Below are positions 3,001 to 37,289 of a stretch of DNA of 64,000 bases, in pieces. This stretch comes from Alphaproteobacteria bacterium. GTDB lineage: Bacteria; Pseudomonadota; Alphaproteobacteria; CBCXTS01. Location: NCBI GenBank assembly GCA_965178085.1, contig CBCXTS010000005.1, positions 27,811 through 91,810 on the forward strand, read 5' to 3'. The number at the start of each line of letters is the position of its first letter. Positions within the stretch are counted from its first letter, which is position 1. The notes beneath the pieces were generated by a model. That model searched no databases. It saw only the letters and a list, made by a program, of their open reading frames with translations, and was not told where the DNA came from. The translations under genes and the position numbers were made by a program.

Positions 3001-6000
3001 AGAGCATCCAGCCTAACCACAATTGGCGCTGTTGAGCTAGCAAAAGAACCACTACCACTGTCTGAAGTTAATGCTGTAACACTTAACGTAAAGTTCTCTC
3101 CATAATGGGGAGAAGGCGCCAATTTTAAACCCGTTAGCTGCGCTTGGCTCAATGTCCAAACATTCGATAATGACGTACCTGCTGATAATGTCGAGCCCAT
3201 AGGCGCACCCGATACATAAATAAGCAATGTTTCACTACCATCGGTATCAAGATTACCGCCAATGGATATATTAAGCCCCAGCATGCTATCATCTTCAATT
3301 CCTGAAATCGCTTGCCCTACAACAGTTGTTGTACGCACACCTGTATCAACCACCGTTTGTTGAATGGCACCAACTTTAGTAATATTGGTTGAAACATCAA
3401 GCGCCACAGACGTAAGCTGCATTGTAAAATCTTGAAGTGTCCCTGTTGATCTAAAGTCAATCGCATCAAATGCACTAGCTGCAACCGTCCATTTACCTGA
3501 AACCAACGTAGCACCTGATAAAGTACTACCCGATGGAATAGCCGATAGAGTAACACTTGAAGGCACACCTGTTACAACAACAAAGTTGGTCTCGCTACCA
3601 TCAGTATCATGAAGCGTTACCGATAATGGATCCTCATTTCGATGTAAGCTTATATCGCTAATTAAAAACCCATTATTTTCAGTGAACACCCTTGGAGTAG
3701 CACCACTCGTTCGAAATGTTTCATGTTCAATAGTGGGTATGCTTGTAGGCGTATAAGTATAAGTAAAGGTCGCAAATCCACCATCTGTTGGAAGTTCCGT
3801 ATATAGAACCCTTATAACAGGAGCCGATCCACCAGCAATCCAAACATTATGTGCAAGATTAGTTCCTCCCGTTTGAGGCCGCGCTAGCTTAATTGACAAT
3901 ACATACTCTTCATTAAGCGCTACGGAGTTTGGTATATGACGAAGCCCTTGATAATAATTGGTACTAGGTGTTGTATTTAATGTACCAAATACATAGCGCG
4001 TTGATGACCCACCAGGTATACCTGCAGCTTGTTCGCTTTTGATATCATTAGGAACACCCCCAGCCCCAGTTATTACAGTTATCCCAACAGGACCAGTAGC
4101 ACTCACATAAGATTGCGCAAGATGATCCGGGTTAAATGTAAATTTGCTTTGCGTATCATTGACATTCAACACGCTTGGTATACCTAAAATGGTAGCAGGT
4201 TGTAAGGTTTCAGTCACAGCCACACCAAGGCTAGATATTTGGACGGTTGAAGAACCACTATCTTCAGAGGTGAGCGCCGTCACACTTAAGGTAAAGTCAC
4301 CATGAGGACCAGGGGTAACTTGCAAACCAGATAATTGACTAGACTGCAACGTCCAAATACCAAGCGATGATAGCGTACCTGCTGATAATTTAGCTCCCGT
4401 TGGCGTACCTGAGATATAAACTACCAATGTCTCACTACCATCGGTATCTATAACTGAGGTAGATATCGCCAGATCAACCGCTAGATCTTCTAATGTAGAG
4501 GTACTGATTGTTTGTAATTTGGCGCTGTCAACTACACCTGATACGCTCACTGCAAGCGATGATGTGATAAATGTTGAAGACGTCCCGTCACTTTCTGATG
4601 TCAAGGATGTTACCGATAAGGTAAAATCTTGGGCAGAATGTGGCGTGGGCGTAATTTGCAAGCCTGATAAGTCACCTGATTGCAGCGTCCAAACACCAGA
4701 TGACAACATACCTGCTGATAATGTAGCTCCCGTTGGCGTACCCGATATATAGATAACCAATGTCTCAGAGCCATCGCTATCATCCAATGAGGTTGAAATC
4801 ACTAGATTAACCGATTGATCTTCTAGTGTTGATGCACTGATTGTTTGTAACTTGGCGCTATCAGCTACACCAGATACCCTAACTGCAAGCGATGATGTCG
4901 TAAATATCGAAGACGCACCGTCATCTTCTGATGTCAAAGCTGTTACCGCTAAGGTAAACTCAGCGCTTGCATGCTTACTTAGCGTTACTTGCAAGCCCGA
5001 TAATTGGTTTGGTTGCAACGTCCAAATACCAAGCGATGACACCGTACCTGCTGATAATGTAGCTCCCGTTGGCGTGCCCGAGATATAAACTACCAACGTT
5101 TCAGAGCCATCGCTATCAATGGCACTGGATGATATAGCAAGATTAACTGCTTGATCTTCAAATCCACTAGCGCTTACAACACCAATCGAAGCCGTATCAG
5201 CTATGCCTGATACTGTCACTAAAAGCTCTGATGTTGTCATCACAGACACTGCACCATTATTATCCGAAGTGACAGCAGTAACCGACAAGGTAAAGTCTTG
5301 GTTTGAATGGGTTAACGTTGTAACTTGTAACTGCAAACTTGAGAGTTGATGCTCATGGATTGTCCATATACCAACCGATGAAACCGTACCTGTTAATAGC
5401 TTTGCTCCCGTTGGAACATTGGATATATACAAAACTAGCGTTTGATCATTATTAATATCAACGTTTGAAACAGAAATAAACAAACTTGCTGTATAACCCT
5501 CTTGTGTTGAAGCACTCTGGGTATGCAAGTTGGCAACCAAGGGATTGGCTGACAAACGAGTAAATAAGCTAGCAACAGAAATGGTTGAATGCGTACCATC
5601 ACTTTCTGAGCTTAAAGCTGTAATCGATAAGGTAAAATCTCTAGTACCTGGCATCGGCGTTATCTGCAAACCTGATAATTGGTTGGTTTCTAATGTCCAA
5701 ACACCAACCGATGAAACCGTACCTGCTGACAACTTAGCTCCCGTTGGAACATCTGATATATAAAGCATTAATGTCTCAGAGCCATCTGTATCAATAAGCG
5801 ATGTTGATAATTGAAGCGTGATGCCATAACCTGCAAATCCACTAGCGCTTACAACACCAATCAAAGCCGTATCAGCAATACCTGATACCGTAACTGCAAG
5901 ATCGCTGGTCGTAAATACCGATGATGTACCATCACTCTCAGAGGTCAAGGCCGTAACCGATAAGGTAAACTCTTGGTCCAAATGGGCGCTTGGCGTTACC

Positions 6001-15000: not shown

Positions 15001-18000
15001 ATCGATGATGTACCATCACTCTCAGAGGTTAAGGCCGTAACCGATAAAGTAAATTCTTGGTCTGAATGGGCGCTTGGCGTTACCTGCAAGCCCGATAATT
15101 GACTGGTTTGGATTGTCCATATACCAGCAGATGAAACCGTACCGGCTGACAAGCTAGCACCCGTTGGCACATTAGATATATAGACAACCAATGTCTCGGT
15201 GCCATCACTATCAATGGCAATGGCTGATATAGCAAGATTAATTGCTTGATCTTCAAAACCACTAGCGCTTACGACACCAAATGAGGCGGTATCGGCTATA
15301 CCCGATACCGTAACTGCAAGATCACTGGTCGTAAATACCGATGATGTACCATCACTCTCAGAGGTCAAGGCCGTAACTGACAAAGTAAATTCATTGTCTG
15401 AATGGGCGCTTGGCGTTACTTGCAAGCCTGATAATTGACTGGTTTGTAACGTCCAAACACCAGATGATGAGACCGTACCTGCTGATAGCTTTGCTCCCGT
15501 TGGCACATTTGATATATAAACAACCAACGTTTCACTACCATCAGTATCCATCACCGAGGTAGAAATTGTAAGCCCAATCGCTTGGTCTTCAACGGTCGAT
15601 GCAGACATTGTCCCCAACGCTGCCGTATCGGCTATACCAGATACCGTAACTGCAAGATCACTGGTCGTAAATACCGATGATGTACCATCACTCTCAGAGG
15701 TCAGTGCCGTAACCGACAATGTAAACTCATTGTCTGAATGGACAGGTGGCGTAATTTGCAAACCTGATAATTGATTGGTTTGTAACGTCCAAATACCAGA
15801 TGATGAAACCGTACCGGCTGACAAGCTAGCCCCCGTTGGCGTGCCAGATATATAAATCACTAATGTTTCACTGCCATCACTATCTATGAGCGAACTAGAA
15901 ATTGTAAGCCCAATCGCTTGGTCTTCAATAGTAGATGCAGACATTGTCCCCAACGCTGCTGTATCAGCTATACCCGATACCGTAACCGCAAGATCACTTG
16001 TGGTAAAGATCGATGATGTGCCATCACTCTCAGAGGTTAAGGCCGTAACCGATAACGTGAATTCAGCGTCTGAATGCACGCTTGGCGTCACTTGCAAGCT
16101 CGATAATTGATTGGATTGGATTGTCCAAACACCTGATGATGAAACCGTACCGGCTGATAATGTTGCCCCCGTTGGCACACCCGATATATAGACAACCAAT
16201 GTCTCACTACCATCGCTATCAATGGCAATGGCTGATATAGCAAGGTTAATTGCTTGATCTTCAAAACCACTAGCGCTTACAACACCAAATGAGGCGGTAT
16301 CGGCTATACCCGATACCGTAACTGCAAGGTCACTGGTAGTAAATACCGATGATGTACCATCACTCTCAGAGGTTAATGCCGTAATCGATAATGTAAATTC
16401 ATTATCCAGATGCGCAGGTGGTGTAACCTGCAAGCCTGATAATTGACTGGTTTGTAACGTCCAAACACCACCCGATGAAACCGTGCCTGCTGAAAGTGTT
16501 GCACCCGTTGGAACGTTTGATATGTAAACAACCAATGTTTCACTACCATCGGTATCTATCACCGAGGTAGAAATTACAAGATTGACCCCTTGGTCTTCAA
16601 ACCCACTAGCACTTACAACATCCAAAGAAGCGGTATCGGCTGTACCTGATACTGTAACTGCCAATGCAGATGTAGTAAATATCGATGATGAGCCGTCATC
16701 TTCAGAAGTTAGCGACGTAACCGACAAGGTAAATTCTTGATCTGAATGCACGCTTGGCGTAATTTGTAAACCTGATAATTGGCTGGTTTGTAATGTCCAG
16801 ACACCAGATGATGAAACCGTACCCGCTGATAGCTTAGCACCCGTTGGTACGCTTGATATATAAACAACCAACGTTTCACTACCATCGGTATCTATAACCG
16901 AGGTAGAAATTGCAAGATTGATCCCTTGATCTTCAAAGCCACTGGCGCTGATCACATCTAACGATGCCGTATCAGCTACGCCAGATATCTTAACTTGAAG
17001 ATCTGCAACTGCAAAAACAGACGATGTGCCATCATCTTCGGAGGTAACAACTGTAACTGATAAAGTAAGATCAAGATGTGAATGCGCAGGAGGTATTGCT
17101 GTTAAACCCGATAACTGGCTAGTTTGCAATGTCCACACACCAGCCGACGATACTGTACCCGCTGAAAGTGATATCCCTGTACGCAAATTGCTAACGTACA
17201 ATACGATCGTTTCACTACCATCTGTATCTAAAATAGCAGGAGATATATCAAGATGAAATGTTTGATCTTCCAAACCGCTCAAACTTAATCGTTGCAATGC
17301 CGCGGTATCTGCTATGCCTGACACCGTAACTGCAAGATCACTTGTGGTAAATATCGATGATGTGCCGTCATCTTCAGATGTAAGTGCCGTAACCGATAAC
17401 GTGAAGTCCTGGTCTGAATGGGCGCTTGGCGTTACCTGCAAGCCCGATAATTGACTGGGTTGTAATGTCCAAACACCAGCCGATGAAACCGTACCTGTCG
17501 AAAGTACTACACCCGTTGGCACATTAGATATATAGACAACCAATGTCTCAGAGCCGTCGCTGTCAATAGCAATGGCTGATATAGCAAGATCAATTGCTTG
17601 ATCTTCAAAGCCACTGGCACTCATCACACCAAACGAAGCCGTATCGGCTATACCCGATACCGTAATTGCAAGGTCACTGGTCGTAAATACCGATGATGTA
17701 CCATCACTCTCAGAGGTCAAGGCCGTAACCGACAAGGTAAACTCATTGTCTGAATGGACAGGTGGCGTTATCTGCAAACCTGATAATTGGCTGGTTTGCA
17801 ATGTCCAAATACCAGATGATGAGACCGTACCTGCCGATAGTTTGGCTCCCGTTGGAGCACCTGATATATAAACAACCAACGTCTCACTACCATCACTATC
17901 AACAAATGAGGTAGAAATTGTAATACCTATCGCTTGATCTTCAACGGTTGATGTATCAATTGTTTGCAGTGGCGCCGTATCAGCTATACCCGATACCGTA

Positions 18001-21000
18001 ACTGCAAGATCACTAGTAATGAAAATTGATGATGTACCATCACTCTCAGAGGTCAAGGCCGTAACCGATAGGGTAAATTCTTGATCTGAATGCAATGGTG
18101 GCGTTACCTGCAAACCCGATAATTGACTTGTCTGCAATGTCCAAACACCTAATGATGAAACCGTACCGGCTGATAATCTTGCCCCCGTTGGGGTACCCGA
18201 TATATAAACAACCAACGTCTCACTACCATCACTATCAACAAATGAGGTAGAAATTGTAATTCCTACTGTTTGATCTTCTAGCGTAGAGGCATCAACTGTT
18301 CCCAAGCGCGCTGTATCAGCAATAGCCGATACCGTAACTGCAATATTGCCTGTCGTGAAACTCGATGACGTGCCATCATCTTCAGAAGTGATAGCCGTAA
18401 CCGATAACGTGAATTCAGCGTCTGAATGTACAGGTGGAGTTACTTGCAAACCCGATAATTGATTGGATTGGATTGTCCAAACACCAGTTGATGATGCCGT
18501 ACCTGCTGATAGCTTTGCTCCCGTTGGAAGATCGCCAATGTAAAGGACAAGTGTTTCGCTACCATCTGTATCTAATATTGCAGATGATATCACAATATTG
18601 ATGCCTTGATCTTCAAAACCACTGGCTGCTATTTGTTGCAAGGCAGGAGTATCGGCTATACCCGATACCGTAACTGCAATATTGCCCGTTGTGATGTTTG
18701 ATGATGTGCCGTCATCTTCAGAGGTTAATGCCGTAACCGACAAGGTAAATTCATTGTCTGAATGCACGGGTGGCGTTACTTGTAAACCTGATAATTGATT
18801 GGATTGGATTGTCCAAACACCAGCCGATGATGCCGTACCTGCTGATAGCTTAGCTCCCGTTGGAAGATTGCCAATATAAAGAACGAGTGTTTCGCTGCCA
18901 TCTGTATCTAATATTGCAGATGATATCACAATATTGATGCCTTGATCTTCAAAACCACTGGCTTGAATTTGTTGCAAAGCGGGAGTGTCGGCTATGCCCG
19001 ATACCGTCACTGCAAGATCACTGGTCGTAAATACCGATGATGTACCATCACTCTCAGAGGTCAAGGCCGTAACCGACAAAGTAAATTCATTGTCTGAATG
19101 GACAGGTGGCGTTACCTGCAAACCCGATAATTGACTTGTTTGGATTGTCCATATACCAACCGATGAAACCGTACCTGCTGATAGCTTAGCTCCCGTTGGC
19201 ACTCCCGATATATAAATAACCAATGTCTCACTACCATCAGTATCTATCACCGAAGTAGAAATTGTAAGCCCTATCGCTTGATCTTCAACGGTAGATGCAG
19301 ACATTGTCTCCAACGCTGCCGTATCAGCTATACCCGATATCGTAACTGCAAGATCACTGGTCGTAAATACCGATGATGTACCATCACTCTCAGAGGTCAA
19401 GGCCGTAACCGACAAGGTAAACTCATTGTCTGAGTGCGCAGGTGGCGTTATCTGCAAGCCTGATAATTGGCTGGTTTGCAATGTCCAAATACCAGATGAT
19501 GAGACCGTACCTGCCGATAGTTTGGCTCCCGTTGGAGCACCTGATATATAAACAACCAACGTCTCACTACCATCACTATCAACAAATGAGGTAGAAATTG
19601 TAATACCTATCACTTGATCTTCAACGATCGATGTATCAATTGTTTGCAGTGGTACCGTGTCAGCTATACCCGATACCGTAACTGCAAGATCACTTGTGGT
19701 AAAGATCGATGATGTGCCATCACTCTCAGAGGTCAAGGCCGTAACCGATAACGTGAAATCTTCATCTGAATGCATAAAGGGCGTAATTTGCAAACCTGAT
19801 AATTGATTGGTTTGCAATGTCCAAACACCTGATGATGAAACCGTACCGGCTGATAATCTTGCCCCCGTTGGGGTACCCGATATATAAACAACCAACGTCT
19901 CACTACCATCACTATCAACAAATGAGGTAGAAATTGTAATTCCTACTGTTTGATCTTCTAGCGTAGAGGCATCAACTGTTCCCAAGCGCGCTGTATCAGC
20001 AATAGCCGATACTGTGACCGCAAGATCACTGGTCGTAAATACCGATGATGTACCATCATCTTCAGAGGTGAGTGCCGTAACCGATAACGTGAATTCAGCG
20101 TCTGAATGGACAGGTGGCGTTACTTGCAAACCCGATAATTGATTGGATTGGATTGTCCAAACACCAGCCGATGATGCCGTACCCGCTGATAGCTTGGCAC
20201 CCGTTGGAACGTTTGATATATAAACAACCAACGTCTCACTGCCATCGGTATCGACTAGCGATGATGAAATAATAAGAGGAATGCTTGTATCTTCAAGCCC
20301 GCTAGCTATAAGACCATCTAATTTAGCTGTATCGGCTATACCCGATACCGTAACTGCAATATTGCCCGTTGTGATGTTTGATGATGTGCCGTCATCTTCA
20401 GAGGTTAATGCCGTAACCGACAAGGTAAATTCATTGTCTGAATGCACGGGTGGCGTTACTTGTAAACCTGATAATTGATTGGATTGGATTGTCCAAACAC
20501 CAGCCGATGATGCCGTACCTGCTGATAGCTTAGCTCCCGTTGGAAGATTGCCAATATAAAGAACGAGTGTTTCGCTGCCATCTGTATCTAATATTGCAGA
20601 TGATATCACAATATTGATGCCTTGATCTTCAAAACCACTGGCTTGAATTTGTTGCAAAGCAGGAGTGTCGGCTATGCCCGATACCGTCACTGCAAGATCA
20701 CTGGTCGTAAATACCGATGATGTACCATCACTCTCAGAGGTCAAGGCCGTAACCGACAAAGTAAATTCATTGTCTGAATGGACAGGTGGGGTTACCTGCA
20801 AGCCCGATAATTGACTTGTTTGCAATGTCCATATACCAACCGATGAAACCGTACCTGCTGATAGCTTAGCTCCCGTTGGCACACCCGATATATAAATAAC
20901 CAATGTCTCACTACCATCAGTATCTATCACCGAAGTAGAAATTGTAAGCCCTATCGCTTGATCTTCAACGGTAGATGCAGACATTGTCTCCAACGCTGCC

Positions 21001-24000
21001 GTATCAGCTATACCCGATATCGTAACTGCAAGATCACTGGTCGTAAATACCGATGATGTACCATCACTCTCAGAGGTCAAGGCCGTAACCGACAATGTAA
21101 ATTCATTGTCTGAGTGCGCAGGTGGCGTTATCTGCAAGCCTGATAATTGGCTGGTTTGCAATGTCCAAATACCAGATGATGAGACCGTACCTGCCGATAG
21201 TTTGGCTCCCGTTGGAGCACCTGATATATAAACAACCAACGTCTCACTACCATCACTATCAACAAATGAGGTAGAAATTGTAATACCTATCACTTGATCT
21301 TCAACGATCGATGTATCAATTGTTTGCAGTGGTACCGTATCAGCTATACCCGATACCGTAACTGCAAGATCACTAGTAATGAAAATTGATGATGTACCAT
21401 CACTCTCAGAGGTCAAGGCCGTAACCGATAACGTGAAATCTTGATCCGAGTGTAGCCACGGTATAACTTGCAAGCCCGATAATTGACTTGTCTGCAATGT
21501 CCAAATACCAGATGATGAGACCGTACCGGCTGATAATCTTACCCCCGTTGGGGTACCCGATATATAAACAACCAACGTCTCACTACCATCACTATCAACA
21601 AATGAGGTAGAAATTGTAATTCCTACTGTTTGATCTTCTAACGTAGAGGCATCAACTGTTCCCAAGCGCGCTGTATCAGCAATAGCCGATACTGTGACCG
21701 CAAGATCAGAACTTGTTACAACCGAAGAAGTGCCATCATCTTCAGAGGTGAGTGCCGTAACCGATAACGTGAATTCAGCGTCTAAATGGACAGGTGGCGT
21801 TACTTGCAAACCCGATAATTGATTGGATTGGATTGTCCAAACACCAGCCGATGAAACCGTACCCGCTGATAGCTTGGCACCCGTTGGAACGTTTGATATA
21901 TAAACAACCAACGTCTCACTGCCATCGGTATCGACTAGCGATGATGAAATAATAAGAGGAATGCCTGTATCTTCAAGCCCGCTAGCTATAAGACCATCTA
22001 ATTTAGCTGTATCAGCAACACCCGATATCCTAACCATAAGTTCTGCCGTAGAAAAAACCGACGATGTACCATCATCTTCAGAGGTAAGCGCCGTAACCGA
22101 TAAGGTAAAGTCTCGATCCGAGTGCAACGGTGGTACGATATATAAACCTGATAATTGACTGGTTTGTAATGTCCAAACACCTGAAGAAGCTACTGTACCC
22201 GATGAAAGCATTACCCCTGAAGGTAAGTTGGTAAGATATACGATAATCGTTTCACTACCATCTGTATCCAAAATTGCAGGCGATATATCAAGTACAACTC
22301 GTTGATCTTCAAGCCCACTTAAATTCAATCGCTGCAGCGCTGGAGTGTCGGCTATACCTGATACCGTCACTGCAAGATCACTGGTAGTAAATACCGATGA
22401 TGTACCATCACTCTCAGAGGTCAAAGCCGTAACCGACAAAGTAAATTCATTGTCTGAGTGCGCAGGTGGCGTTACCTGCAAGCCCGATAATTGACTTGTT
22501 TGCAATGTCCATATACCAACCGATGAAACCGTACCTGCTGATAGCTTTGCTCCCGTTGGCACACCCGATATATAAATAACCAATGTCTCACTACCATCAG
22601 TATCTATCACCGAAGTAGAAATTGTAAGCCCTATCGCTTGGTCTTCAACGGTCGATGCAGACATTGTCTCCAACGCTGCCGTATCGGCTATACCCGATAT
22701 CGTAACTGCAAGATCACTGGTCGTAAATACCGATGATGTACCATCACTCTCAGAGGTCAAGGCCGTAACCGACAAGGTAAACTCATTGTCTGAGTGCGCA
22801 GGTGGCGTTATCTGCAAACCTGATAATTGGCTGGTTTGCAATGTCCAAATACCAGATGATGAGACCGTACCTGCCGATAGTTTGGCTCCCGTTGGAGCAC
22901 CTGATATATAAACAACCAACGTCTCACTACCATCACTATCAACAAATGAGGTAGAAATTGTAATACCTATCGCTTGATCTTCAACGATCGATATATCAAT
23001 TGTTTGCAGTGGTACCGTGTCGGCTATACCCGATACCGTAACTGCAAGATCACTAGTAATGAAAACTGATGATGTACCGTCATCTTCAGAGGTCAAGGCC
23101 GTAACCGATAACGTGAAATCTTGATCCGAGTGTAGCCACGGTATAACTTGCAAGCCCGATAATTGACTTGTCTGCAATGTCCAAACACCTGATGATGAAA
23201 CCGTACCCGTTGATAGCTTAGCACCCGTTGGGGTACCCGATATATAAACAACCAACGTCTCACTACCATCACTATCAACAAATGAGGTAGAAATTGTAAT
23301 CCCTACTGTTTGATCTTCTAGCGTAGAGGCATCAACTGTTCCCAAGCGCGCTGTATCAGCAATAGCCGATACCGTAACTGCAATATTGCCTGTCGTGAAA
23401 CTCGATGACGTGCCATCATCTTCAGAAGTGATAGCCGTAACCGATAACGTGAATTCAGCGTCTGAATGTACAGGTGGCGTTACTTGCAAACCCGATAATT
23501 GATTGGATTGGATTGTCCAAACACCAGCCGATGATGCCGTACCTGCTGATAGCTTAGCTCCCGTTGGAAGATCGCCAATATAAAGGACAAGTGTTTCGCT
23601 GCCATCTGTATCTAATATTGCAGATGATATCACAATATTGATGCCTTGATCTTCAAAACCACTGGCTGCTATTTGTTGCAAGGCAGGAGTATCGGCTATA
23701 CCCGATACCGTAACTGCAATATTGCCCGTTGTGATGTTTGATGATGTGCCGTCATCTTCAGAGGTTAATGCCGTAACCGACAAGGTAAATTCATTGTCTG
23801 AATGCACGGGTGGCGTTACTTGTAAACCTGATAATTGATTGGATTGGATTGTCCAAACACCAGCCGATGATGCCGTACCTGCTGATAGCTTAGCTCCCGT
23901 TGGAAGATTGCCAATATAAAGAACGAGTGTTTCGCTGCCATCTGTATCTAATATTGCAGATGATATCACAATATTGATGCCTTGATCTTCAAAACCACTG

Positions 24001-27000
24001 GCTTGAATTTGTTGCAAAGCGGGAGTGTCGGCTATGCCCGATACCGTCACTGCAAGATCACTGGTCGTAAATACCGATGATGTACCATCACTCTCAGAGG
24101 TCAAGGCCGTAACCGACAAAGTAAATTCATTGTCTGAATGGGCGCTTGGCGTTACCTGCAAGCCCGATAATTGACTTGTTTGCAATGTCCATATACCAAC
24201 CGATGAAACCGTACCTGCTGATAGCTTTGCTCCCGTTGGCACACCCGATATATAAATAACCAATGTCTCACTACCATCAGTATCTATCACCGAAGTAGAA
24301 ATTGTAAGCCCTATCGCTTGGTCTTCAACGGTCGATGCAGACATTGTCTCCAACGCTGCCGTATCGGCTATACCCGATATCGTAACTGCAAGATCACTGG
24401 TCGTAAATACCGATGATGTACCATCACTCTCAGAGGTCAAGGCCGTAACCGACAAGGTAAACTCATTGTCTGAGTGCGCAGGTGGCGTTATCTGCAAACC
24501 TGATAATTGGCTGGTTTGCAATGTCCAAATACCAGATGATGAGACCGTACCTGCCGATAGTTTGGCTCCCGTTGGAGCACCTGATATATAAACAACCAAC
24601 GTCTCACTACCATCACTATCAACAAATGAGGTAGAAATTGTAATACCTATCGCTTGATCTTCAACGATCGATATATCAATTGTTTGCAGTGGCGCCGTAT
24701 CAGCTATACCCGATACCGTAACTGCAAGATCACTAGTAATGAAAATTGATGATGTACCGTCATCTTCAGAGGTCAAGGCCGTAACCGATAACGTGAAATC
24801 TTGATCCGAGTGTAGCGACGGTATAACTTGCAAGCCCGATAATTGACTTGTCTGCAATGTCCAAATACCAGATGATGAAACCGTACCGGCTGATAATCTT
24901 GCCCCCGTTGGGGTACCCGATATATAAACAACCAACGTCTCACTACCATCACTATCAACAAATGAGGTAGAAATTGTAATTCCTACTGTTTGATCTTCTA
25001 ACGTAGAGGCATCAACTGTTCCCAAGCGCGCTGTATCAGCAATAGCCGATACTGTGACCGCAAGATCAGAACTTGTTACAACCGAAGAAGTGCCATCATC
25101 TTCAGAGGTGAGTGCCGTAACCGATAACGTGAATTCAGCGTCTGAATGGACAGGTGGCGTTACTTGCAAACCCGATAATTGATTGGATTGGATTGTCCAA
25201 ACACCAGCCGATGAAACCGTACCCGCTGATAGCTTGGCACCCGTTGGAACGTTTGATATATAAACAACCAACGTCTCACTGCCATCGGTATCGACTAGCG
25301 ATGATGAAATAATAAGAGGAATGCCTGTATCTTCAAGCCCGCTAGCTATAAGACCATCTAATTTAGCTGTATCAGCAACACCCGATATCCTAACCATAAG
25401 TTCTGCCGTAGAAAAAACCGACGATGTACCATCATCTTCAGAGGTAAGCGCCGTAATCGATAAGGTAAAGTCTCGATCCGAGTGCAACGGTGGTACGATA
25501 TGCAAACCTGATAATTGACTGGCTTGTAATGTCCAAACACCTGAAGAAGCTATTGTACCCGATGAAAGCATTACCCCTGAAGGTAAGTTGGTAAGATATA
25601 CGATAAGCGTTTCACTACCATCTGTATCCAAAATTGCAGGCGATATATCAAGTACAACTCGTTGATCTTCAAGCCCACTTAAATTCAATCGCTGCAGCGC
25701 TGGAGTGTCGGCTATACCTGATACCGTCACTGCAAGATCACTGGTAGTAAATACCGATGATGTACCATCACTCTCAGAGGTCAAAGCCGTAACCGACAAA
25801 GTAAATTCATTGTCTGAGTGCGCAGGTGGCGTTACCTGCAAGCCCGATAATTGACTTGTTTGCAATGTCCATATACCAACCGATGAAACCGTACCTGCTG
25901 ATAGCTTAGCTCCCGTTGGCACACCCGATATATAAATAACCAATGTCTCACTACCATCAGTATCTATCACCGAAGTAGAAATTGTAAGCCCTATCGCTTG
26001 GTCTTCAACGGTCGATGCAGACATTGTCTCCAACGCTGCCGTATCGGCTATACCCGATATCGTAACTGCAAGATCACTGGTCGTAAATACCGATGATGTA
26101 CCATCACTCTCAGAGGTCAAGGCCGTAACCGACAAGGTAAACTCATTGTCTGAGTGCGCAGGTGGCGTTATCTGCAAACCTGATAATTGGCTGGTTTGCA
26201 ATGTCCAAATACCAGATGATGAGACCGTACCTGCTGATAATTTGGCTCCCGTTGGAGCACCTGATATATAAACAACCAACGTCTCACTACCATCACTATC
26301 AACAAATGAGGTAGAAATTGTAATACCTATCGCTTGATCTTCAACGATCGATATATCAATTGTTTGCAGTGGCGCCGTATCAGCTATACCCGATACCGTA
26401 ACTGCAAGATCACTAGTAATGAAAATTGATGATGTACCGTCATCTTCAGAGGTCAAGGCCGTAACCGATAACGTGAAATCTTGATCCGAGTGTAGCGACG
26501 GTATAACTTGCAAGCCCGATAATTGACTTGTCTGCAATGTCCAAATACCAGATGATGAAACCGTACCGGCTGATAATCTTACCCCCGTTGGGGTACCCGA
26601 TATATAAACAACCAACGTCTCACTACCATCACTATCAACAAATGAGGTAGAAATTGTAATTCCTACTGTTTGATCTTCTAACGTAGAGGCATCAACTGTT
26701 CCCAAGCGCGCTGTATCAGCAATAGCCGATACTGTGACCGCAAGATCAGAACTTGTTACAACCGAAGAAGTGCCATCATCTTCAGAGGTGAGTGCCGTAA
26801 CCGATAACGTGAATTCAGCGTCTGAATGGACAGGTGGCGTTACTTGCAAACCCGATAATTGATTGGATTGGATTGTCCAAACACCTGATGATGAAACCGT
26901 ACCCGCTGATAGCTTGGCACCCGTTGGAACGTTTGATATATAAACAACCAACGTCTCACTGCCATCGGTATCGACTAGCGATGATGAAATAATAAGAGGA

Positions 27001-30000
27001 ATGCCTGTATCTTCAAGCCCGCTAGCTATAAGACCATCTAATTTAGCTGTATCAGCAACACCCGATATCCTAACCATAAGTTCTGCCGTAGAAAAAACCG
27101 ACGATGTACCATCATCTTCAGAGGTAAGCGCCGTAACCGATAAGGTAAAGTCTCGATCCGAGTGCAACGGTGGTACGATATATAAACCTGATAATTGACT
27201 GGTTTGTAATGTCCAAACACCTGAAGAAGCTACTGTACCCGATGAAAGCATTACCCCTGAAGGTAAGTTGGTAAGATATACGATAATCGTTTCACTACCA
27301 TCTGTATCCAAAATTGCAGGCGATATATCAAGTACAACTCGTTGATCTTCAAGCCCACTTAAATTCAATCGCTGCAGCGCTGCAGTGTCGGCTATACCTG
27401 ATACCGTCACTGCAAGATCACTGGTCGTAAATACCGATGATGTACCATCACTCTCAGAGGTCAAAGCCGTAACCGACAAAGTAAATTCATTGTCTGAGTG
27501 CGCAGGTGGCGTTACCTGCAAGCCCGATAATTGACTTGTTTGCAATGTCCATATACCAACCGATGAAACCGTACCTGCTGATAGCTTAGCTCCCGTTGGC
27601 ACACCCGATATATAAATAACCAATGTCTCACTACCATCAGTATCTATCACCGAAGTAGAAATTGTAAGCCCTATCGCTTGGTCTTCAACGGTCGATGCAG
27701 ACATTGTCTCCAACGCTGCCGTATCGGCTATACCCGATACCGTAACTGTCAATGCACTGGTGGTGAAAATCGATGATGTACCATCACTCTCAGAGGTCAA
27801 GGCCGTAACCGACAATGTAAACTCATCGTCTGAATGGACAGGTGGCGTAATTTGCAAACCTGATAATTGATTGGTTTGTAACGTCCAAATACCAGATGAT
27901 GAGACCGTACCTGCTGATAGTTTAGCTCCCGTTGGAGCACCTGATATATAAACAACTAACGTCTCACTACCATCACTATCAACAAATGAAGTAGAAATTG
28001 TAATACCTATCGCTTGATCTTCAATAGTAGATGCAGACATTGTCCCCAACGCTGCTGTATCGGCTATACCCGATACCCTAACTGCAAGATCACTGGTAGT
28101 AAATATCGATGATGTACCGTCATCTTCAGAGGTCAAAGCCGTAACCGATAGGGTAAATTCTTGATCTGAATGCAATGGTGGCGTTACCTGCAAACCCGAT
28201 AATTGATTGGATTGGATTGTCCAAACACCTGATGATGAAACCGTACCCGCTGATAGCTTGGCACCCGTTGGAACGTTTGATATATAAACAACCAACGTCT
28301 CACTGCCATCGGTATCAATGCGTAAAGCAGAAATAGAAAGCCCTATCGCTTGATCTTCAAACCCGCTAGCACTGATCACTCCAAACGAGGCCGTGTCAGC
28401 AATAGCCGATACTGTGACCGCAAGATCAGCGCTTGTTACAACCGAAGACGTGCCATCATCTTCTGAAGAAATAGCTGTAATTGAAAGCGTAAATTCTTGG
28501 TCTGAATGGGCAAGCGGAGTGATGGTTAACCCTGATAGTTGGTTAGTTTGTATTGTCCATGCACCTGATGATGAAACCGTACCCGCTGATAGCTTAGCAC
28601 CTGTTGGTACATTACCTACATATAGCACTAGCGTTTCACTACCATCTGTATCCAATATTGCAGATGATATTGTAATAGGAATGCCTGTATCTTCAAAACC
28701 ACTAGCGGCTAGTCGCTGCAATGCTGGAGTATCAGCTACACCCGATACCGTAACCGACAGCTCAGTTGTGGTGAAAACCGACGATGTACCGTCATCTTCA
28801 GAGGTGATAGTCGTAACCGATAAGGTAAAGTCTCGATCTGAATGCAGAGGCGGTATGATTTGTAAACCAGCTAATTGACTTGGCTGTAATGTCCAAACAC
28901 CAGTCGATGACAACGTTCCTGATGTCAATGTAGCGCCTGTGATCACACCTGCGATATAAACCACAATCGTCTCGCTACCATCTGTATCAATTAAAGGCGA
29001 TGATATCCCAAGATTGATCGCTTGATCTTCAAAACCACTAGCACTGCTCACCCCAAGCGAGGCCGTATCGGCTATACCCGATACCGTCACTGCAATATCA
29101 CTGGTGGTGAAAACCGATGACGTGCCATCAGCTTCAGAGATGAACGCCGTAACCGACAAAGTAAATTCATTGTCCGAATGGACAGGTGGCGTAATTTGCA
29201 AGCCTGATAATTGACTGGTTTGCAGCGTCCAAATACCAGATGATGAGATCGTACCTGCTGATAGCTTTGCTCCCGTTGGAGCACCTGATATATAAACAAC
29301 CAATGTCTCACTACCATCGCTATCAACAAAGGAGGTAGAAATTGTAAGACCTATCGCTTGATCTTCAACGGTAGATGCGTCGATTGTTTGCAGTGGCGCC
29401 GTATCGGCTATGCCCGATACCGTAACTGCAAGATCACTGGTGGTGAAAATCGATGATGTACCGTCATCTTCAGAGGTCAAGGCCGTAACCGATAACGTAA
29501 AATCTTCATCTGAATGTATAAAGGGCGTAATTTGCAAACCTGATAATTGATTGGTTTGTAACGTCCAAATACCAGATGATGAGACCGTACCTGCTGATAG
29601 TTTGGCTCCCGTTGGAGCACCTGATATATAAACAACCAACGTCTCACTACCATCACTATCAACAAATGAAGTAGAAATTGTAATACCTATCGCTTGATCT
29701 TCAACGGTCGATGTATCAGTTGTTTGCAGTGGCGCCGTATCGGCTATACCCGATACCCTAACTGCAAGATCACTGGTAGTAAATATCGATGATGTACCGT
29801 CATCTTCAGAGGTCAAGGCCGTAACCGATAGGGTAAATTCTTGATCTGAATGCAATGGTGGCGTTACCTGCAAACCCGATAATTGATTGGATTGGATTGT
29901 CCAAACACCTGATGATGAAACCGTACCCGCTGATAGCTTGGCACCCGTTGGAACGTTTGATATATAAACAACCAACGTCTCACTGCCATCGGTATCAATG

Positions 30001-33000
30001 CGTAAAGCAGAAATAGAAAGCCCTATCGCTTGATCTTCAAACCCGCTAGCACTGATCACTCCAAACGAGGCCGTGTCAGCAATAGCCGATACTGTGACCG
30101 CAAGATCAGCGCTTGTTACAACCGAAGACGTGCCATCATCTTCTGAAGAAATAGCTGTAATTGAAAGCGTAAATTCTTGGTCTGAATGGGCAAGCGGAGT
30201 GATGGTTAACCCTGATAGTTGGTTAGTTTGTATTGTCCATGCACCTGATGATGAAACCGTACCCGCTGATAGCTTAGCACCTGTTGGTACATTACCTACA
30301 TATAGCACTAGCGTTTCACTACCATCTGTATCCAATATTGCAGATGATATTGTAATAGGAATGCCTGTATCTTCAAAACCACTAGCGGCTAGTCGCTGCA
30401 ATGCTGGAGTATCAGCTACACCCGATACCGTAACCGACAGCTCAGTTGTGGTGAAAACCGACGATGTACCGTCATCTTCAGAGGTGATAGTCGTAACCGA
30501 TAAGGTAAAGTCTCGATCTGAATGCAGAGGCGGTATGATTTGTAAACCAGCTAATTGACTTGGCTGTAATGTCCAAACACCAGTCGATGACAACGTTCCT
30601 GATGTCAATGTAGCGCCTGTGATCACACCTGCGATATAAACCACAATCGTCTCGCTACCATCTGTATCAATTAAAGGCGATGATATCCCAAGATTGATCG
30701 CTTGATCTTCAAAACCACTAGCACTGCTCACCCCAAGCGAGGCCGTATCGGCTATACCCGATACCGTCACTGCAATATCACTGGTGGTGAAAACCGATGA
30801 CGTGCCATCAGCTTCAGAGATGAACGCCGTAACCGACAAAGTAAATTCATTGTCCGAATGGACAAGTGGCGTAATTTGCAAGCCTGATAATTGACTGGTT
30901 TGCAGCGTCCAAATACCAGATGATGAGATCGTACCTGCTGATAGCTTTGCTCCCGTTGGAGCACCTGATATATAAACAACCAATGTCTCACTACCATCGC
31001 TATCAACAAAGGAGGTAGAAATTGTAAGACCTATCGCTTGATCTTCAACGGTAGATGCGTCGATTGTTTGCAGTGGCGCCGTATCGGCTATGCCCGATAC
31101 CGTAACTGCAAGATCACTGGTGGTGAAAATCGATGATGTACCGTCATCTTCAGAGGTCAAGGCCGTAACCGATAACGTAAAATCTTCATCTGAATGTATA
31201 AAGGGCGTAATTTGCAAACCTGATAATTGATTGGTTTGTAACGTCCAAATACCAGATGATGAGACCGTACCTGCTGATAGTTTGGCTCCCGTTGGAGCAC
31301 CTGATATATAAACAACCAACGTCTCACTACCATCACTATCAACAAATGAAGTAGAAATTGTAATACCTATCGCTTGATCTTCAACGGTCGATGTATCAGT
31401 TGTTTGCAGTGGCGCCGTATCGGCTATACCCGATACCCTAACTGCAAGATCACTGGTAGTAAATATCGATGATGTACCGTCATCTTCAGAGGTCAAGGCC
31501 GTAACCGATAATGTAAAATCTTGATCTGAATGCAATGGTGGCGTTACCTGCAAACCCGATAATTGATTGGATTGGATTGTCCAAACACCTGATGATGAAA
31601 CCGTACCCGCTGATAGCTTGGCACCCGTTGGAACGTTTGATATATAAACAACCAACGTCTCACTGCCATCGGTATCAATGCGTAAAGCAGAAATAGAAAG
31701 CCCTATCGCTTGATCTTCAAACCCGCTAGCACTGATCACTCCAAACGAGGCCGTGTCAGCAATAGCCGATACTGTGACCGCAAGATCAGCGCTTGTTACA
31801 ACCGAAGACGTGCCATCATCTTCTGAAGAAATAGCTGTAATTGAAAGCGTAAATTCTTGGTCTGAATGGGCAAGCGGAGTGATGGTTAACCCTGATAATT
31901 GGTTAGTTTGTATTGTCCATACACCTGATGATGAAACCGTACCCGCTGATAGCTTAGCACCTGTTGGTATATTGTCTACATATAGCACTAGCGTTTCACT
32001 ACCATCTGTATCCAATATTGCAGATGATATTGTAATAGGAATGCCTGTATCTTCAAAACCACTAGCGGCTAGTCGCTGCAATGCTGGAGTATCAGCTACA
32101 CCCGATACCGTAACCGACAGCTCAGTTGTGGTGAAAACCGACGATGTACCGTCATCTTCAGAGGTGATAGTCGTAACCGATAAGGTAAAGTCTCGATCTG
32201 AATGCAGAGGCGGTATGATTTGTAAACCAGCTAATTGACTTGGCTGTAATGTCCAAACACCAGTCGATGACAACGTTCCTGATGTCAATGTAGCGCCTGT
32301 GATCACACCTGTGATATAAACCACAATCGTCTCGCTACCATCTGTATCAATTAAAGGCGATGATATCCCAAGATTGATCGCTTGATCTTCAAAACCACTA
32401 GCACTGCTCACCCCAAACGATGCCGTATCGGCTATACCCGATACCGTCACTGCAAGATTACTAGTCGTGAAAATCGATGACGTGCCATCAGCTTCAGAGG
32501 TAAGTGCTGTAATCGATAATGTGAAATCTTGATCCGAATGAGCAGATGGTGTTACTTGCAAACCCGACAATTGACTGGTTTGCAGCGTCCATTGGCCAGA
32601 TGATGAGATCGTACCTGCTGATAGCTTAGCACCCGTTGGCACGCCCGATATATAAACCACTAACGTCTCACTACCATCGCTATCAACAAAGAAGGTAGAA
32701 ATTGTAATACCTATCGCTTGATCTTCAACGGTAGATGCGTCGATTGTTTGCAGTGAGGCCGTATCGGCTATACCCGATACCCTAACTGCAAGATCACTGG
32801 TAGTAAATATCGACGATGCACCGTCATTTTCAGAGGTAAGCGCCGTAACCGACAATGTAAATTCATTGTCTGAGTGCGCAGGTGGCGTAATTTGCAAACC
32901 TGATAATTGATTGGTTTGTAACGTCCAAATACCAGATGATGAGACCGTACCTGCTGATAGTTTGGCTCCCGTTGGAGCACCTGATATATAAACAACCAAT

Positions 33001-36000
33001 GTCTCAGAACCGTCAGTATCAATGAGCGTAGTCGATATAATAAGATCAACGCTTTTATCTTCTACTGTCGAGGTATTTTGCACCCGCAGAACAGGAACAT
33101 CTGCCTCACCATACAATGTAACAACAAGATCTACTCTGCTTGCTAAAGAAGAAACACCGTCTCTTTCGGATGTTGTTGTGATAACAGTAAGGGTAAAATC
33201 TTCATTCGAATGAACAGGTGGAATCAAGTTTAATCCAGCAAGTTCACCCTTGCTTAAAGTCCATAATCCACCCGAAACTGTACCAGCAGTCAAACTAGCA
33301 CGCGGTGGTACGTTACTAATATAAATAATTGCAGTCTCACTGCCGTCTGTATCAACAATAGTTGCAACAATATCAAGAGAAACAACGCTATCTTCTAAAC
33401 CACTGATGTTTGAAAAGCTAAGCTGTGCTGTATCTGCTACCCCAACAACTTTAACGCTAATATCAGCCGTCGTAAAAACCGAAGAATTTGTATCATTTTC
33501 TGATGTAATAGCAGTAACCGATAAGGTAAAGTCTTGATCCGAATGAACAGGCGGTATTACTGCTAACCCTGAAACCAGTCCACCAGAAACAGTCCACACA
33601 GAAGAATGTAAAACCCCTGCAGAAAGCTTTGCACCTGCTGGTACATTTGAAACATAAACCACTAATGTTTCCGATGCATCCGTATCAACCAGAACAACTG
33701 AAAGACCAAGCGTAATTATAGTATCTTCCAAACCACACGTATCTTGCACTACAAGACTTACCGTATCTGCAACTCCTGTTAAATTAATGGTTATCATATT
33801 GGTTGTGATGACGCTACCAATTGCTTGATCTTCTGAGGTAACAGCTGTAACAGAAAGTGTAAAATCATATGCAGAATGTGCTGGTGCTTTCAGTTCTAGC
33901 CCTGAAAGTTCTGCCAATGAAACCGTCCATACATTATTGGCTAACGTTCCTGAAGACAAAAAAGAGTCTGTTGGAACGTTTGCAATGTAAAGTATTAACG
34001 TTTCAGAACCATCGGTGTCTTGCAATCCCAAAAAGGAGCTTAATATAATAGCATGATCTTCTGTTCCAGGGATCGCAGAAGTTAAAATATCACCAGCATC
34101 AATAACTGGCGCAATGGTAATATTTGATTGCGTTTTGCTAAGAACTTCATGCTCTCCATCTTTGATTACAACCAACGCTGTAATAGCAAAATTTCCTGAA
34201 TAATGCGCTGGAGGTGTGACAATTAAATCATTGCCAAATATCCTATATTCATTCAAATTTAACATCCAACGACCATTGGATTGTAGCGTTCCATGGTTCA
34301 AACGGGCTTGAGTTGGAAGAATAAACTCTACCTGGTGCAAACTATCGCCTGAACCTATAATGCCTACAGATAATTTTAATGAAAACCCTACATCTTCTGT
34401 GAGCATAGGATCCACAGTAATTGAAAGTGTTGGGATAGTAGCTAAAGAAGTAGCAACTGGAAGATTCTTGGGAGCGCCCAAAACAATAGCATCTTGATCA
34501 AGTATTGAAATTTGTAAATTAAAATTACCTTGATCAATTGGAGATATCAGATTGAGATTATCAAGCTCTGTCGTTGACAGTGTATATCTGCCATCTGGTT
34601 GACGTGTGCCACTACTTAAGCTGCTTAGTGCTGGAACACCGCCAATGACAACGCTAGTGGCAGGAACATCTACCAATGCAACAGAGCGAAATAATGCAAG
34701 AGGAAATAAAGGAGCGGTTATTGGCTGAGAATCAGGCGCTGTTGGCTGTAACAGAACAGCTCCTGAAATTTCAATTTGTTCAATTTCTCCAATCGTAACA
34801 CCTAGGCTTGTAAATTCGTATCTACCTTGTGCATTCAAACGAGAAAGGACAGATGAATTAGTAACGCTTCCTTGTTGCAATTGCTGTTGTAATATCTGTA
34901 AATCAAAAACATCAGAGCGGACATTTAAATTGCTAGCCAAAAGATCATTAGGACTAATCTTAACAACCAAACGGTCAATTCCTGCACCACCTGAAGCTAG
35001 GTCCTGCTGAGAAGCAATAGTTCCCGTACCTTGACTGGCAACAAATAACGTGTCATCTCCAAACCCACCATAAAGCTTATCAGCACCGCCTTCACCATCA
35101 AGAGCATCATTGCCAAACTCTCCAAATATAATATCATCCCCATCGCCACCTGATATTTGATCACCACTACTTGCAAGCAACTCCACTGACACCGTTGAAT
35201 GCAAAACCTGCGGATTAGTGTCTCCAACAACACTCGTAACCGACAGTGTGAACTCAGGTGTGCCAGATGCAATACCCGTGATTCTTAAGCTACTGAGGTT
35301 TGCAATAATTTTATCTGTATAAGGAAATGAAAACTGGCCCGTGCCCTCAGGCGTTGGGTAAATAGCAAATCCATCTTGATCAAAAAGTTCAAGCGATTGC
35401 CCTGGTTGCAAACCGCTAATAATCATTCGATCAAGCGGACCATCGGGGATAGGAGACCCTTGATATTTCAATGGAACCAATGCAACAAAAATAGAAGAAC
35501 CCATTACCACTTGTGGCGGATTGCCATCAATAAAGCTTGCTCCATAATCACCAAACAAAACCTGATTAGCTGCTTCTCCTTGTATACGATCGCTACCTCC
35601 TCCTCCACTAAAGGTAGCGGCATTCGTCACAGAAGATACTGTGTTAATATTTTGCAAATCTACAACACTAGTGTTTGCGTTTAAAATTAATGAAAACCCA
35701 TTATCAATGGGTTGAGCCGTAGGAACTGGCGGCAAGGTAATCTCATCGCTAGACCCTGAAAAAGGATCAAAACTTGATGGAACTGAGGGCAAGCTTACAA
35801 TAGGCAGTAATGGCAAAGACGGCCCAATAGGAGTAACAGAACTGCTAGAGGTATCACTGGTTGGCAAAACATCATCAACCGATGATATTGTATCGCTTAA
35901 ACTCACAATATCGCTTTGCGAAGACGATAAAACATTATTAGAAACATTCGCTGTTTGGATGATGTTGAGAGCATTTCTTTGTTCTACTTCATCAACAACA

Positions 36001-37076: not shown

Positions 37077-37289
37077 TGATGTTGGTTTGTTTTAAGCTTG
37101 TATAGGTGAACATTTGTTGTTCAATTTTACTGTGCCTTGTTACGTTTTATTTTGGCTAGCCATTTGATGGCGTCCCAGCGTCCATCATGTACTAATACAA
37201 AACTGACTATATAGTATCGCGTATCAATAACATTTTTATATAAGCATAACAAGCTAGTTCAAGCATTTTTGTAAATATAAAATAAAATT

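Follow-up and report, generated by a model that had tools for sequence, protein, structure and literature searches.

A giant gene for a probable RTX-adhesin-type surface fibre with about 100 tandem domains in a low-GC alphaproteobacterium

The giant gene and its repeat array

The stretch of DNA analysed here, referred to below as the window, comprises 64,000 nucleotides of contig CBCXTS010000005.1 (positions 27,811 to 91,810) from an alphaproteobacterium, and more than half of it is occupied by one unbroken gene on the minus strand. A six-frame scan of the window revealed a stop-free frame of 12,363 codons running from position 37091 to position 3, in which the first ATG lies at 37076 and opens a product beginning MAEDNKTT. 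The homologous protein P0230 begins MAEDKKNE, and since its MAEDKK start matches MAEDNK, the ATG at 37076 is the likely start codon. The gene continues past the left edge of the window, which leaves its 3' end, and with it the protein's C-terminus, outside. The encoded part comprises 12,358 amino acids (aa) from the ATG, with a mass of 1.256 MDa, an isoelectric point of 4.05, a net charge of about -1080 and a single cysteine residue. Because the gene extends past the edge of the window, the list of open reading frames (ORFs) supplied with the sequence shows nothing large in the first 37 kb. The following features were recognized in the gene (i-E, independent E-value of a match to the unit profile described below).

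3-37076, minus strand: giant adhesin-like gene; stop-free frame with an ATG matching the start of P0230
36327-36746, minus strand: conserved N-terminal domain (about 140 aa), a candidate for anchoring or retention; 31% identical to residues 31-170 of P0147
34941-35243, minus strand: block of RTX nonapeptides forming a beta-roll (GGDGDDIIFGEFGNDALDGEGGADKLYGGFGDDTLF...), aa 612-712; HemolysinCabind at 32.8-38.5 bits, cut-off 23
34110-34655, minus strand: two degenerate unit copies leading into the array; profile matches at aa 813-865 (i-E 3e-8) and 898-994 (i-E 1e-7)
4212-34106, minus strand: array of 112-aa (336-bp) immunoglobulin (Ig)/cadherin-like units without breaks; Tandem Repeats Finder, unit list, profile matches, AlphaFold2 model, substitution rates
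17901-33020, minus strand: portion of the array in which a five-unit (1680-bp) higher-order repeat is clear; units 5, 10 and 15 apart often 99-100% identical in DNA
3693-4211, minus strand: insert 1, 173 aa, in a split unit; candidate ligand-binding domain resembling a carbohydrate-binding module (CBM)
12-3692, minus strand: eight diverged unit copies interleaved with the three inserts (i-E 1e-18 to 1e-40), at 3339-3692, 3006-3338, 2679-3002, 1815-2126, 1479-1811, 591-818, 246-581 and 12-242, the last cut by the window edge
2127-2678, minus strand: insert 2, 184 aa, in a second split unit; gap in the profile matches, module 42% identical to module 1, a paralogue
819-1478, minus strand: insert 3, 220 aa, in a third split unit; gap in the profile matches, module 25% identical to module 1, a distant paralogue

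A first-pass annotation, made from the letters of the sequence, had described about 100 tandem domains at 4400-34020 with an exact unit of 336 bp. The unit length was borne out by several measures: (i) Tandem Repeats Finder reported a period of 336 with 81.4 copies at 5656-33024, besides two short diverged rows at 4315-5220, (ii) base identity at an offset of 336 bp is 0.72, compared with 0.23-0.30 at neighbouring offsets and a background of 0.25, and (iii) of the 93 intervals between successive D-x-D-G-S-E motifs, 78 measure exactly 112 aa. With a profile made from 29 non-redundant units (alignment A1), 100 matches were obtained in the open frame, 99 of them with i-E below 1e-5, and the matches lie back to back over aa 996-10960 (nucleotides 34106-4212). 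The count of about 100 domains therefore stands for the whole gene, whereas the interval 4400-34020 itself holds 88 contiguous units in the unit listing; the units beyond it include the degenerate ones at 34110-34655 and the eight diverged ones at 12-3692. The consensus of the unit reads GIADTAxLxxxSASGFEDQAIxLxISxxxxDSDGSETLVVYISxVPTGAKLSAGTVSSxGVWTLQTSQLSGLQVTPPxHSDxEFTLSVTALTSExDGTSSxFTTSDLAVTVS. It agrees with the core peptide quoted in the first-pass annotation, which is a translation of the minus strand, although no strand had been named there.

The ratio of nonsynonymous to synonymous substitution rates (dN/dS) between units is 0.23 and not one unit contains a stop, so the array is coding sequence under purifying selection. 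The two outcomes that had been named in advance as speaking against the array, a lack of 336-bp periodicity and units interrupted by stops, were thus looked for and not obtained. The units differ from one another mainly in the first two strands (columns 6-13 and 20-31), where dN/dS is 0.47 compared with 0.19 elsewhere, and outside these columns the unit is nearly invariant across the array. A foreign origin of the repeats, considered for their GC content of 45% as against 37% in the flanks, was rejected: the excess lies mostly at codon position 2 (0.52 vs 0.37), with values of 0.34 and 0.29 at position 3, and it follows from amino-acid composition.

Superimposed on the 336-bp period is a five-unit repeat. 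Mean DNA identity is 0.87 between units five apart and 0.75 between adjacent ones, base identity at an offset of 1680 bp is 0.76, and within units 4-48 the best match to a unit stands almost always at a distance of 5, 10 or 15 units, often with 99-100% identity. Such near-identity at regular distances indicates, on sequence grounds, that the array has grown through recent duplication of 1680-bp blocks. The array would grow and shrink by unequal recombination in blocks of five units. Three plus-strand ORFs of 161 aa with GTG starts, antisense to the giant gene (28393-28878, 30073-30558 and 31753-32238), stand exactly 1680 bp apart because of the five-unit repeat; they are by-products of it and unlikely to be genes.

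Perfect unit copies make the exact number of units dependent on the assembly. It can be proposed that the size of the gene is partly an artefact, in that a real gene has had its 1680-bp blocks mis-counted, the true array being much shorter or longer, or that two loci have been joined. The many pairs of units 99-100% identical at distances of 5, 10 and 15 are consistent with this, as is the fact that the closest relative, P0134, is likewise cut off within its repeats; the authors of the MpIBP study state that such arrays often fail to assemble even with PacBio reads (PMC5550230). Against it, the frame is open over 37 kb, neighbouring units diverge by about 25%, the array is bordered on either side by unique sequence that shares its frame, and the units change gradually along the array, with a block pattern in units 4-48 that differs from that in units 54-84, as in a real array. 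We consider this explanation decidedly unlikely.

Family, fold and calcium sites of the repeat unit

The class of the repeat had been left open in the first-pass annotation, which proposed a HMMER search against Pfam and TIGRFAM. When this check was run, the units failed all models, and the class could then be partly assigned through homologues. No curated model of Pfam or NCBIfam matched the window's units at E<=0.01. Two-unit queries under relaxed Pfam settings gave Cadherin_4 (E=0.22; 12.5 bits against a threshold of 25.1) and Big_9 (E=0.52), both sub-threshold, and Pfam Cadherin (PF00028) gave no match to the units. NCBIfam includes models for T1SS-143 (TIGR03660) and VCBS (TIGR01965); neither of these nor tandem-95 (NF012211) matched a 4,872-aa block of units at E<=1, and T1SS-143 and VCBS had no NCBIfam match at E<=0.01 in the other parts of the protein. 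Judged by its sequence, the unit is neither VCBS nor T1SS-143.

An exhaustive profile search was needed because a word-indexed search based on the unit profile had yielded no more than 13 short fragments. The exhaustive search retrieved 4,038 cluster representatives at E<=1e-3 (894 at E<=1e-30), mostly from Rhodospirillales-like Alphaproteobacteria, and many of the homologues are 1,000-7,600 aa long with 10-51 copies of the unit. All three homologues scanned (P0171, P0162 and P0181) pass Cadherin_4, Cadherin_5 and Big_9 on the stretches covered by the profile; in P0171, the unit profile spans 224-335, Cadherin_5 225-311 and Big_9 226-326. Tandem-95 is passed by P0171 (242 bits) and P0162 (217 bits; cut-off 90), and the homologues P0122 and P0126 also pass the Pfam test with Cadherin_4, Cadherin_5 and Big_9. 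Common to the unit and to its cadherin-like homologues are the hallmarks EDxxIxLxIxxxLxDTDGSExL, LSAGT, W(T/S)L and FTL, in this order. Since the homologues pass these models on the same stretches, the unit can be placed, in part and through transitive homology only, as a divergent, low-GC branch of the bacterial cadherin-like / Big_9 / tandem-95 superfamily.

An AlphaFold2 model of two consecutive units, built from a 44-row alignment, comprises two all-beta sandwiches of seven to eight strands each, with a predicted local distance difference test (pLDDT) of 92.1. In the search of the unit profile against all PDB sequences (E<=10), 9cse_A was matched at E=1.3e-5 together with six chance-level matches, and no MpIBP or SiiE chain was among them. 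The entry 9CSE contains the split Ig-like domain together with the RTX-like ligand-binding domain of AhLap, an RTX adhesin of Aeromonas hydrophila (PMC12077191). The closest solved relative of the unit, and homologous to it, is this Ig-like split domain. By sequence, the units are not bacterial Ig-like domains of the MpIBP or SiiE type. The protein P0152 (5,047 aa) was considered as a candidate for AhLap, which has the same length; the residues at the construct boundaries do not match, and the agreement is a coincidence of length.

The model also shifts the phase of the domain. The D-x-D-G-S-E motif, taken in the first-pass annotation for a linker at the start of each unit, falls in the model between the second and third strands (24-28 and 36-43), that is, in a loop inside the domain; successive domains are joined by the linker S-G-(I/V)-A-D-T-A, which puts the beginning of the structural domain about 30 residues upstream of the unit start chosen earlier. 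The conserved acidic residues (E17/D18, D31/D33/E36, E94 and the linker aspartate) are placed by the predicted strand order in loops adjoining the domain junction. Judged by this strand order, their placement appears to parallel the five Ca2+ motifs of cadherins. Once the protein is outside the cell, Ca2+ would occupy the acidic pockets formed where one domain follows another, to which one domain would contribute the ED after strand A and the SDxE before strand F, the linker its ADTA, and the next domain DTDGSE and SExDG. Binding would stiffen the chain into a rod of about 0.45-0.5 um. The earlier estimate of a rod several hundred nanometres long is reasonable, as this length follows from 4.5-5 nm per domain as in MpIBP (PMC5550230).

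Ends of the fibre, relatives and alternative readings

Three inserts interrupt the units that follow the array toward the C-terminus. Each of them stands after a strand-A-like LQPATI segment and before ED-x-L-x-V-x-L-x-DTDGSE, and the third keeps the conserved hydrophobic landmarks of module 1. Such split-domain arrangements mark the ligand-binding regions of RTX adhesins (PMC12077191, PMC10865825), and the three inserts, situated after the first strand of a unit, are placed like the ligand-binding domains of these proteins. We interpret the stretch 12-3692 as a ligand-presenting distal region, which fits the earlier proposal of an extender projecting distal binding modules, as the candidate modules lie distal to the array. 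No homologues of the inserts were found outside the lineage by Pfam (E<=5), by a PDB sequence search with insert 1 or by a word-indexed search with the three modules.

In P0134, which is 7,609 aa long with its N-terminus cut off and carries 51 units, the distal modules are 83-93% identical to those of the window protein, and six insert modules are found as against three. From this difference it follows that the number of insert modules turns over quickly between close relatives. The six modules of P0134 are of two types, three being 93% identical to insert 1 of the window and three about 36-37%.

At the other end of the protein, the N-terminus is hydrophilic and lacks a signal-peptide-like stretch. 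The N-terminal domain of about 140 aa is visibly shared with P0230 and is common only to P0147 and P0230; it had no match in Pfam, NCBIfam or PDB sequences, Pfam giving nothing meaningful up to E<=5. An acidic low-complexity spacer separates it from the RTX beta-roll, which in the PDB sequence search matched the RTX block of CyaA (7usl_C) at E=9e-24 and also serralysins. The beta-roll is located ahead of the repeat array and not at the C-terminus. No LapG-type site of the form (T/A/P)AA(G/V) was found near the N-terminus.

Because an N-terminal signal peptide is lacking, the protein is probably exported C-terminus first via a type I secretion system (T1SS). Export by other means, either through Sec and a two-partner or autotransporter route or as delivery of a MARTX-type toxin, agrees with the fact that a T1SS signal and T1SS genes were not observed in the window or, for the C-terminus, in four scans. 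This explanation would have to account for the hydrophilic N-terminus, for the RTX beta-roll, and for the extreme acidity and near-absence of cysteine. It is also at odds with the domain content, as no beta-barrel, two-partner secretion, effector or protease domain was detected by Pfam and NCBIfam in the 12,358 aa, and with those homologues in which RTX repeats occupy the C-terminus and ABC and HlyD genes stand alongside. We regard it as very improbable.

The flank of the gene (37290-64000, GC 36-41%) is ordinary chromosome. It encodes lspA, ileS, a JmjC/cupin protein, gltA, a deaminase, a Cu-oxidase_4 (laccase-family) protein, lgt and an epimerase, followed in our list by three glycolate-oxidase-like genes, icd, a major facilitator superfamily transporter gene, marC, pcm, serS, tatC and ychF. 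No tRNA genes were found in the 64 kb. The isoleucyl-tRNA synthetase is 60% identical to its nearest non-identical match and about 55% to the enzymes of Rhodospirillales (Azospirillum, Ferrovibrio, Aestuariispira), and on this distance the host can be taken, by sequence, for a deep-branching low-GC alphaproteobacterium. An AT-rich spacer of 213 bp (37077-37289) separates lspA from the giant gene, and promoter-like matches in it are no commoner than in shuffled sequence. No Shine-Dalgarno-like sequence was found before the ATG at 37076, and neither promoter nor terminator signals of a convincing kind were found near the gene start.

For the relatives, we analyzed 75 related loci in named genomes, mostly from Rhodospirillales with some from Gammaproteobacteria and Pirellulaceae, by clustering the flanking ORFs and scanning them with Pfam; this procedure replaced a filter on LSGGQ and Walker A motifs, which had missed most of the T1SS ABC genes. 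The neighbours include paired ABC exporters in 15 loci, an HlyD membrane-fusion protein in 13, a dCache-PAS-HD_5 protein in 13, a GGDEF response regulator in 6 and a protease of the Peptidase_C93 (LapG) family in 5. At least three RTX motifs occur in the last 700 aa of 49 of the 150 best homologues, and P0171 and P0181 carry C-terminal HemolysinCabind repeats. The RTX-adhesin setting proposed in the first-pass annotation is supported by these C-terminal repeats, by the adjacent T1SS genes and by the LapG-like proteases. The dCache-PAS-HD_5 protein, about 790 aa long, adjoins the giant repeat gene in L010, L012 (14084-16450), L015, L022, L029, L037 and other loci, and is sometimes accompanied by the Peptidase_C93 protease; it may be a stand-in for LapD, a signalling partner controlling release of the adhesin. 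An end of the form ELTF-x-N-V-E-(R/K)-(I/L)-E-W just after the RTX repeats was observed in 15 of the 150 best homologues (a family that includes P0135, P0150 and P0171), and other C-termini of the family read DGKVT(I/L)T(I/L)D.

Taken together, the giant gene probably encodes a very acidic, nearly cysteine-free surface fibre of the RTX-adhesin type in a low-GC alphaproteobacterium. The protein would leave the cell C-terminus first through a T1SS, and the N-terminal module would hold it on the cell. The fibre would be ordered as a cell-proximal N-terminal module, an extender of about 100 domains and a distal region with three candidate glycan-binding modules. The rod would hold these three jelly-roll, CBM-like modules away from the cell, and each of them would bud sideways from its split domain and bind glycans or another surface. 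In its outline of extender, distal modules and rod, the interpretation first given to this DNA largely holds; its domain phase, with D-x-D-G-S-E as linker, does not.

Several observations pull in the opposite direction. (i) In the first 1,359 aa, Pfam and NCBIfam matched only RTX-repeat families, and the N-terminus yielded no canonical retention module. (ii) The first 480 residues contain no AA dipeptide, the dialanine site of LapG. (iii) The 27 kb upstream hold housekeeping genes only, with no T1SS, LapG or LapD genes. (iv) The units fall below the threshold of every curated domain model in Pfam and NCBIfam. (v) With the C-terminus outside the window, the two class-defining features, a C-terminal RTX block and a T1SS signal, were not seen, and two genome scans and two metagenome scans did not recover them; a peptide scan of genome contigs with aa 11880-12363 of the window protein gave no relative, and metagenome scans with the C-terminus of P0134 and insert module 1 gave nothing or only a relative at 34%. 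(vi) Neither Pfam nor NCBIfam has a family that matches the last 1,150 aa of P0134, although a few GGxGxD-like motifs can be seen there. (vii) The CBM-like (jelly-roll) fold of the inserts is tentative, coming from a low-confidence model (pLDDT 49.7). (viii) The copy number of the units is uncertain, as arrays with many 100%-identical units can mis-assemble. (ix) Ca2+ binding, surface location and adhesion are properties that we infer.

An alternative is that the same fibre is not an adhesin. It could be a giant secreted or loosely attached protein serving as surface coat, in spacing or in motility, or it could be released into the biofilm matrix rather than kept in place by a plug at its N-terminus; SwmB of marine Synechococcus, with 10,791 aa, offers a comparison. 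This explanation gains from the N-terminus, with neither a canonical retention module nor a LapG cleavage motif, from the window, in which no LapG or LapD gene occurs, and from the inserts, whose fold comes from a low-confidence model and which have no known ligand. We judge it unlikely, and all three alternatives (a non-adhesive fibre, a mis-counted array and export by another route) are less likely than an RTX-adhesin-type fibre.

A more tentative proposal concerns the cell-proximal end. The lineage comprising the window gene, P0134, P0147 and P0230 might form a distinct architectural class of giant T1SS fibre that lacks the LapA-type retention plug cut by LapG. In such a class, which we consider possible though doubtful, the cell-proximal end might consist of the conserved 140-aa domain, a disordered spacer of acidic character and an RTX beta-roll ahead of the extender. 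If this were true, it would imply a different mode of anchoring or releasing the fibre, and the protein, comprising 12,358 residues or more and some 100 domains, would rank with the longest proteins of bacteria to have been assembled in one frame.

Comparison with known giant adhesins

Giant repetitive adhesins determine to what a bacterium attaches, and assemblies often break them up or lack them; in the present case a single frame contains a 37-kb array. It offers a natural example of array evolution, in which five-unit blocks are amplified and the fold is under purifying selection. It brings to light a large domain family (the 4,038 cluster representatives) that is only partly recognized by Pfam and NCBIfam, the subfamily of the window being wholly missed. 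The gene also offers three candidate glycan-binding modules and a non-canonical N-terminal end.

Of the features of known RTX adhesins, a long central Ig-like extender array is present (100 profile matches; AlphaFold2 pLDDT 92). An N-terminal retention module with a LapG dialanine site was not found, nor were linked T1SS genes in the 27 kb upstream.

The cadherin-like, Big_9 and tandem-95 models (PF17803, PF17892, PF17963 and NF012211) are passed by the homologues, whereas the window's own units remain sub-threshold. Classical cadherin extracellular repeats share no sequence-level membership with the unit, to which PF00028 gave no match, and the Ca2+ sites of the window protein are predicted ones. 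With the LapA/LapG/LapD system of Pseudomonas fluorescens, the neighbours of the relatives have in common Peptidase_C93, GGDEF, ABC exporter and HlyD proteins, none of which is encoded in the window. In 13 of the 75 related loci, the signalling protein conserved as a neighbour is the dCache-PAS-HD_5 protein and not a GGDEF-EAL protein like LapD.

AhLap of A. hydrophila is a 5,047-aa RTX adhesin with 28 highly similar extenders (PMC12077191). The domain type of the unit was matched in AhLap only as a split domain, whereas in the window gene the same type is present in about 100 copies and is itself the extender. AhLap has a canonical N-terminal retention domain, while none was found in the window protein. 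AhLap also carries its RTX repeats and T1SS signal at the C-terminus, whereas in the window protein the C-terminus lies outside the window and an RTX block precedes the array.

MpIBP is a 1.5-MDa ice-binding RTX adhesin of Marinomonas primoryensis, in which a coding stretch of more than 37 kb specifies about 120 Ca2+-bound Ig-like domains of 104 aa in tandem; they form a 0.6-um extender followed by ligand-binding domains (PMC5550230). No sequence similarity of the window unit to any MpIBP chain was detected, and the window protein contains no ice-binding domain. The repeats of MpIBP are mutually identical, whereas adjacent units of the window are about 75% identical and approach identity only at five-unit intervals. 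In scale, logic and extreme repetitiveness of the DNA, MpIBP resembles the window gene. The current picture of RTX adhesins is unchanged by this finding, and the giant protein is an unusually large, divergent example of the known giant RTX-type adhesins.

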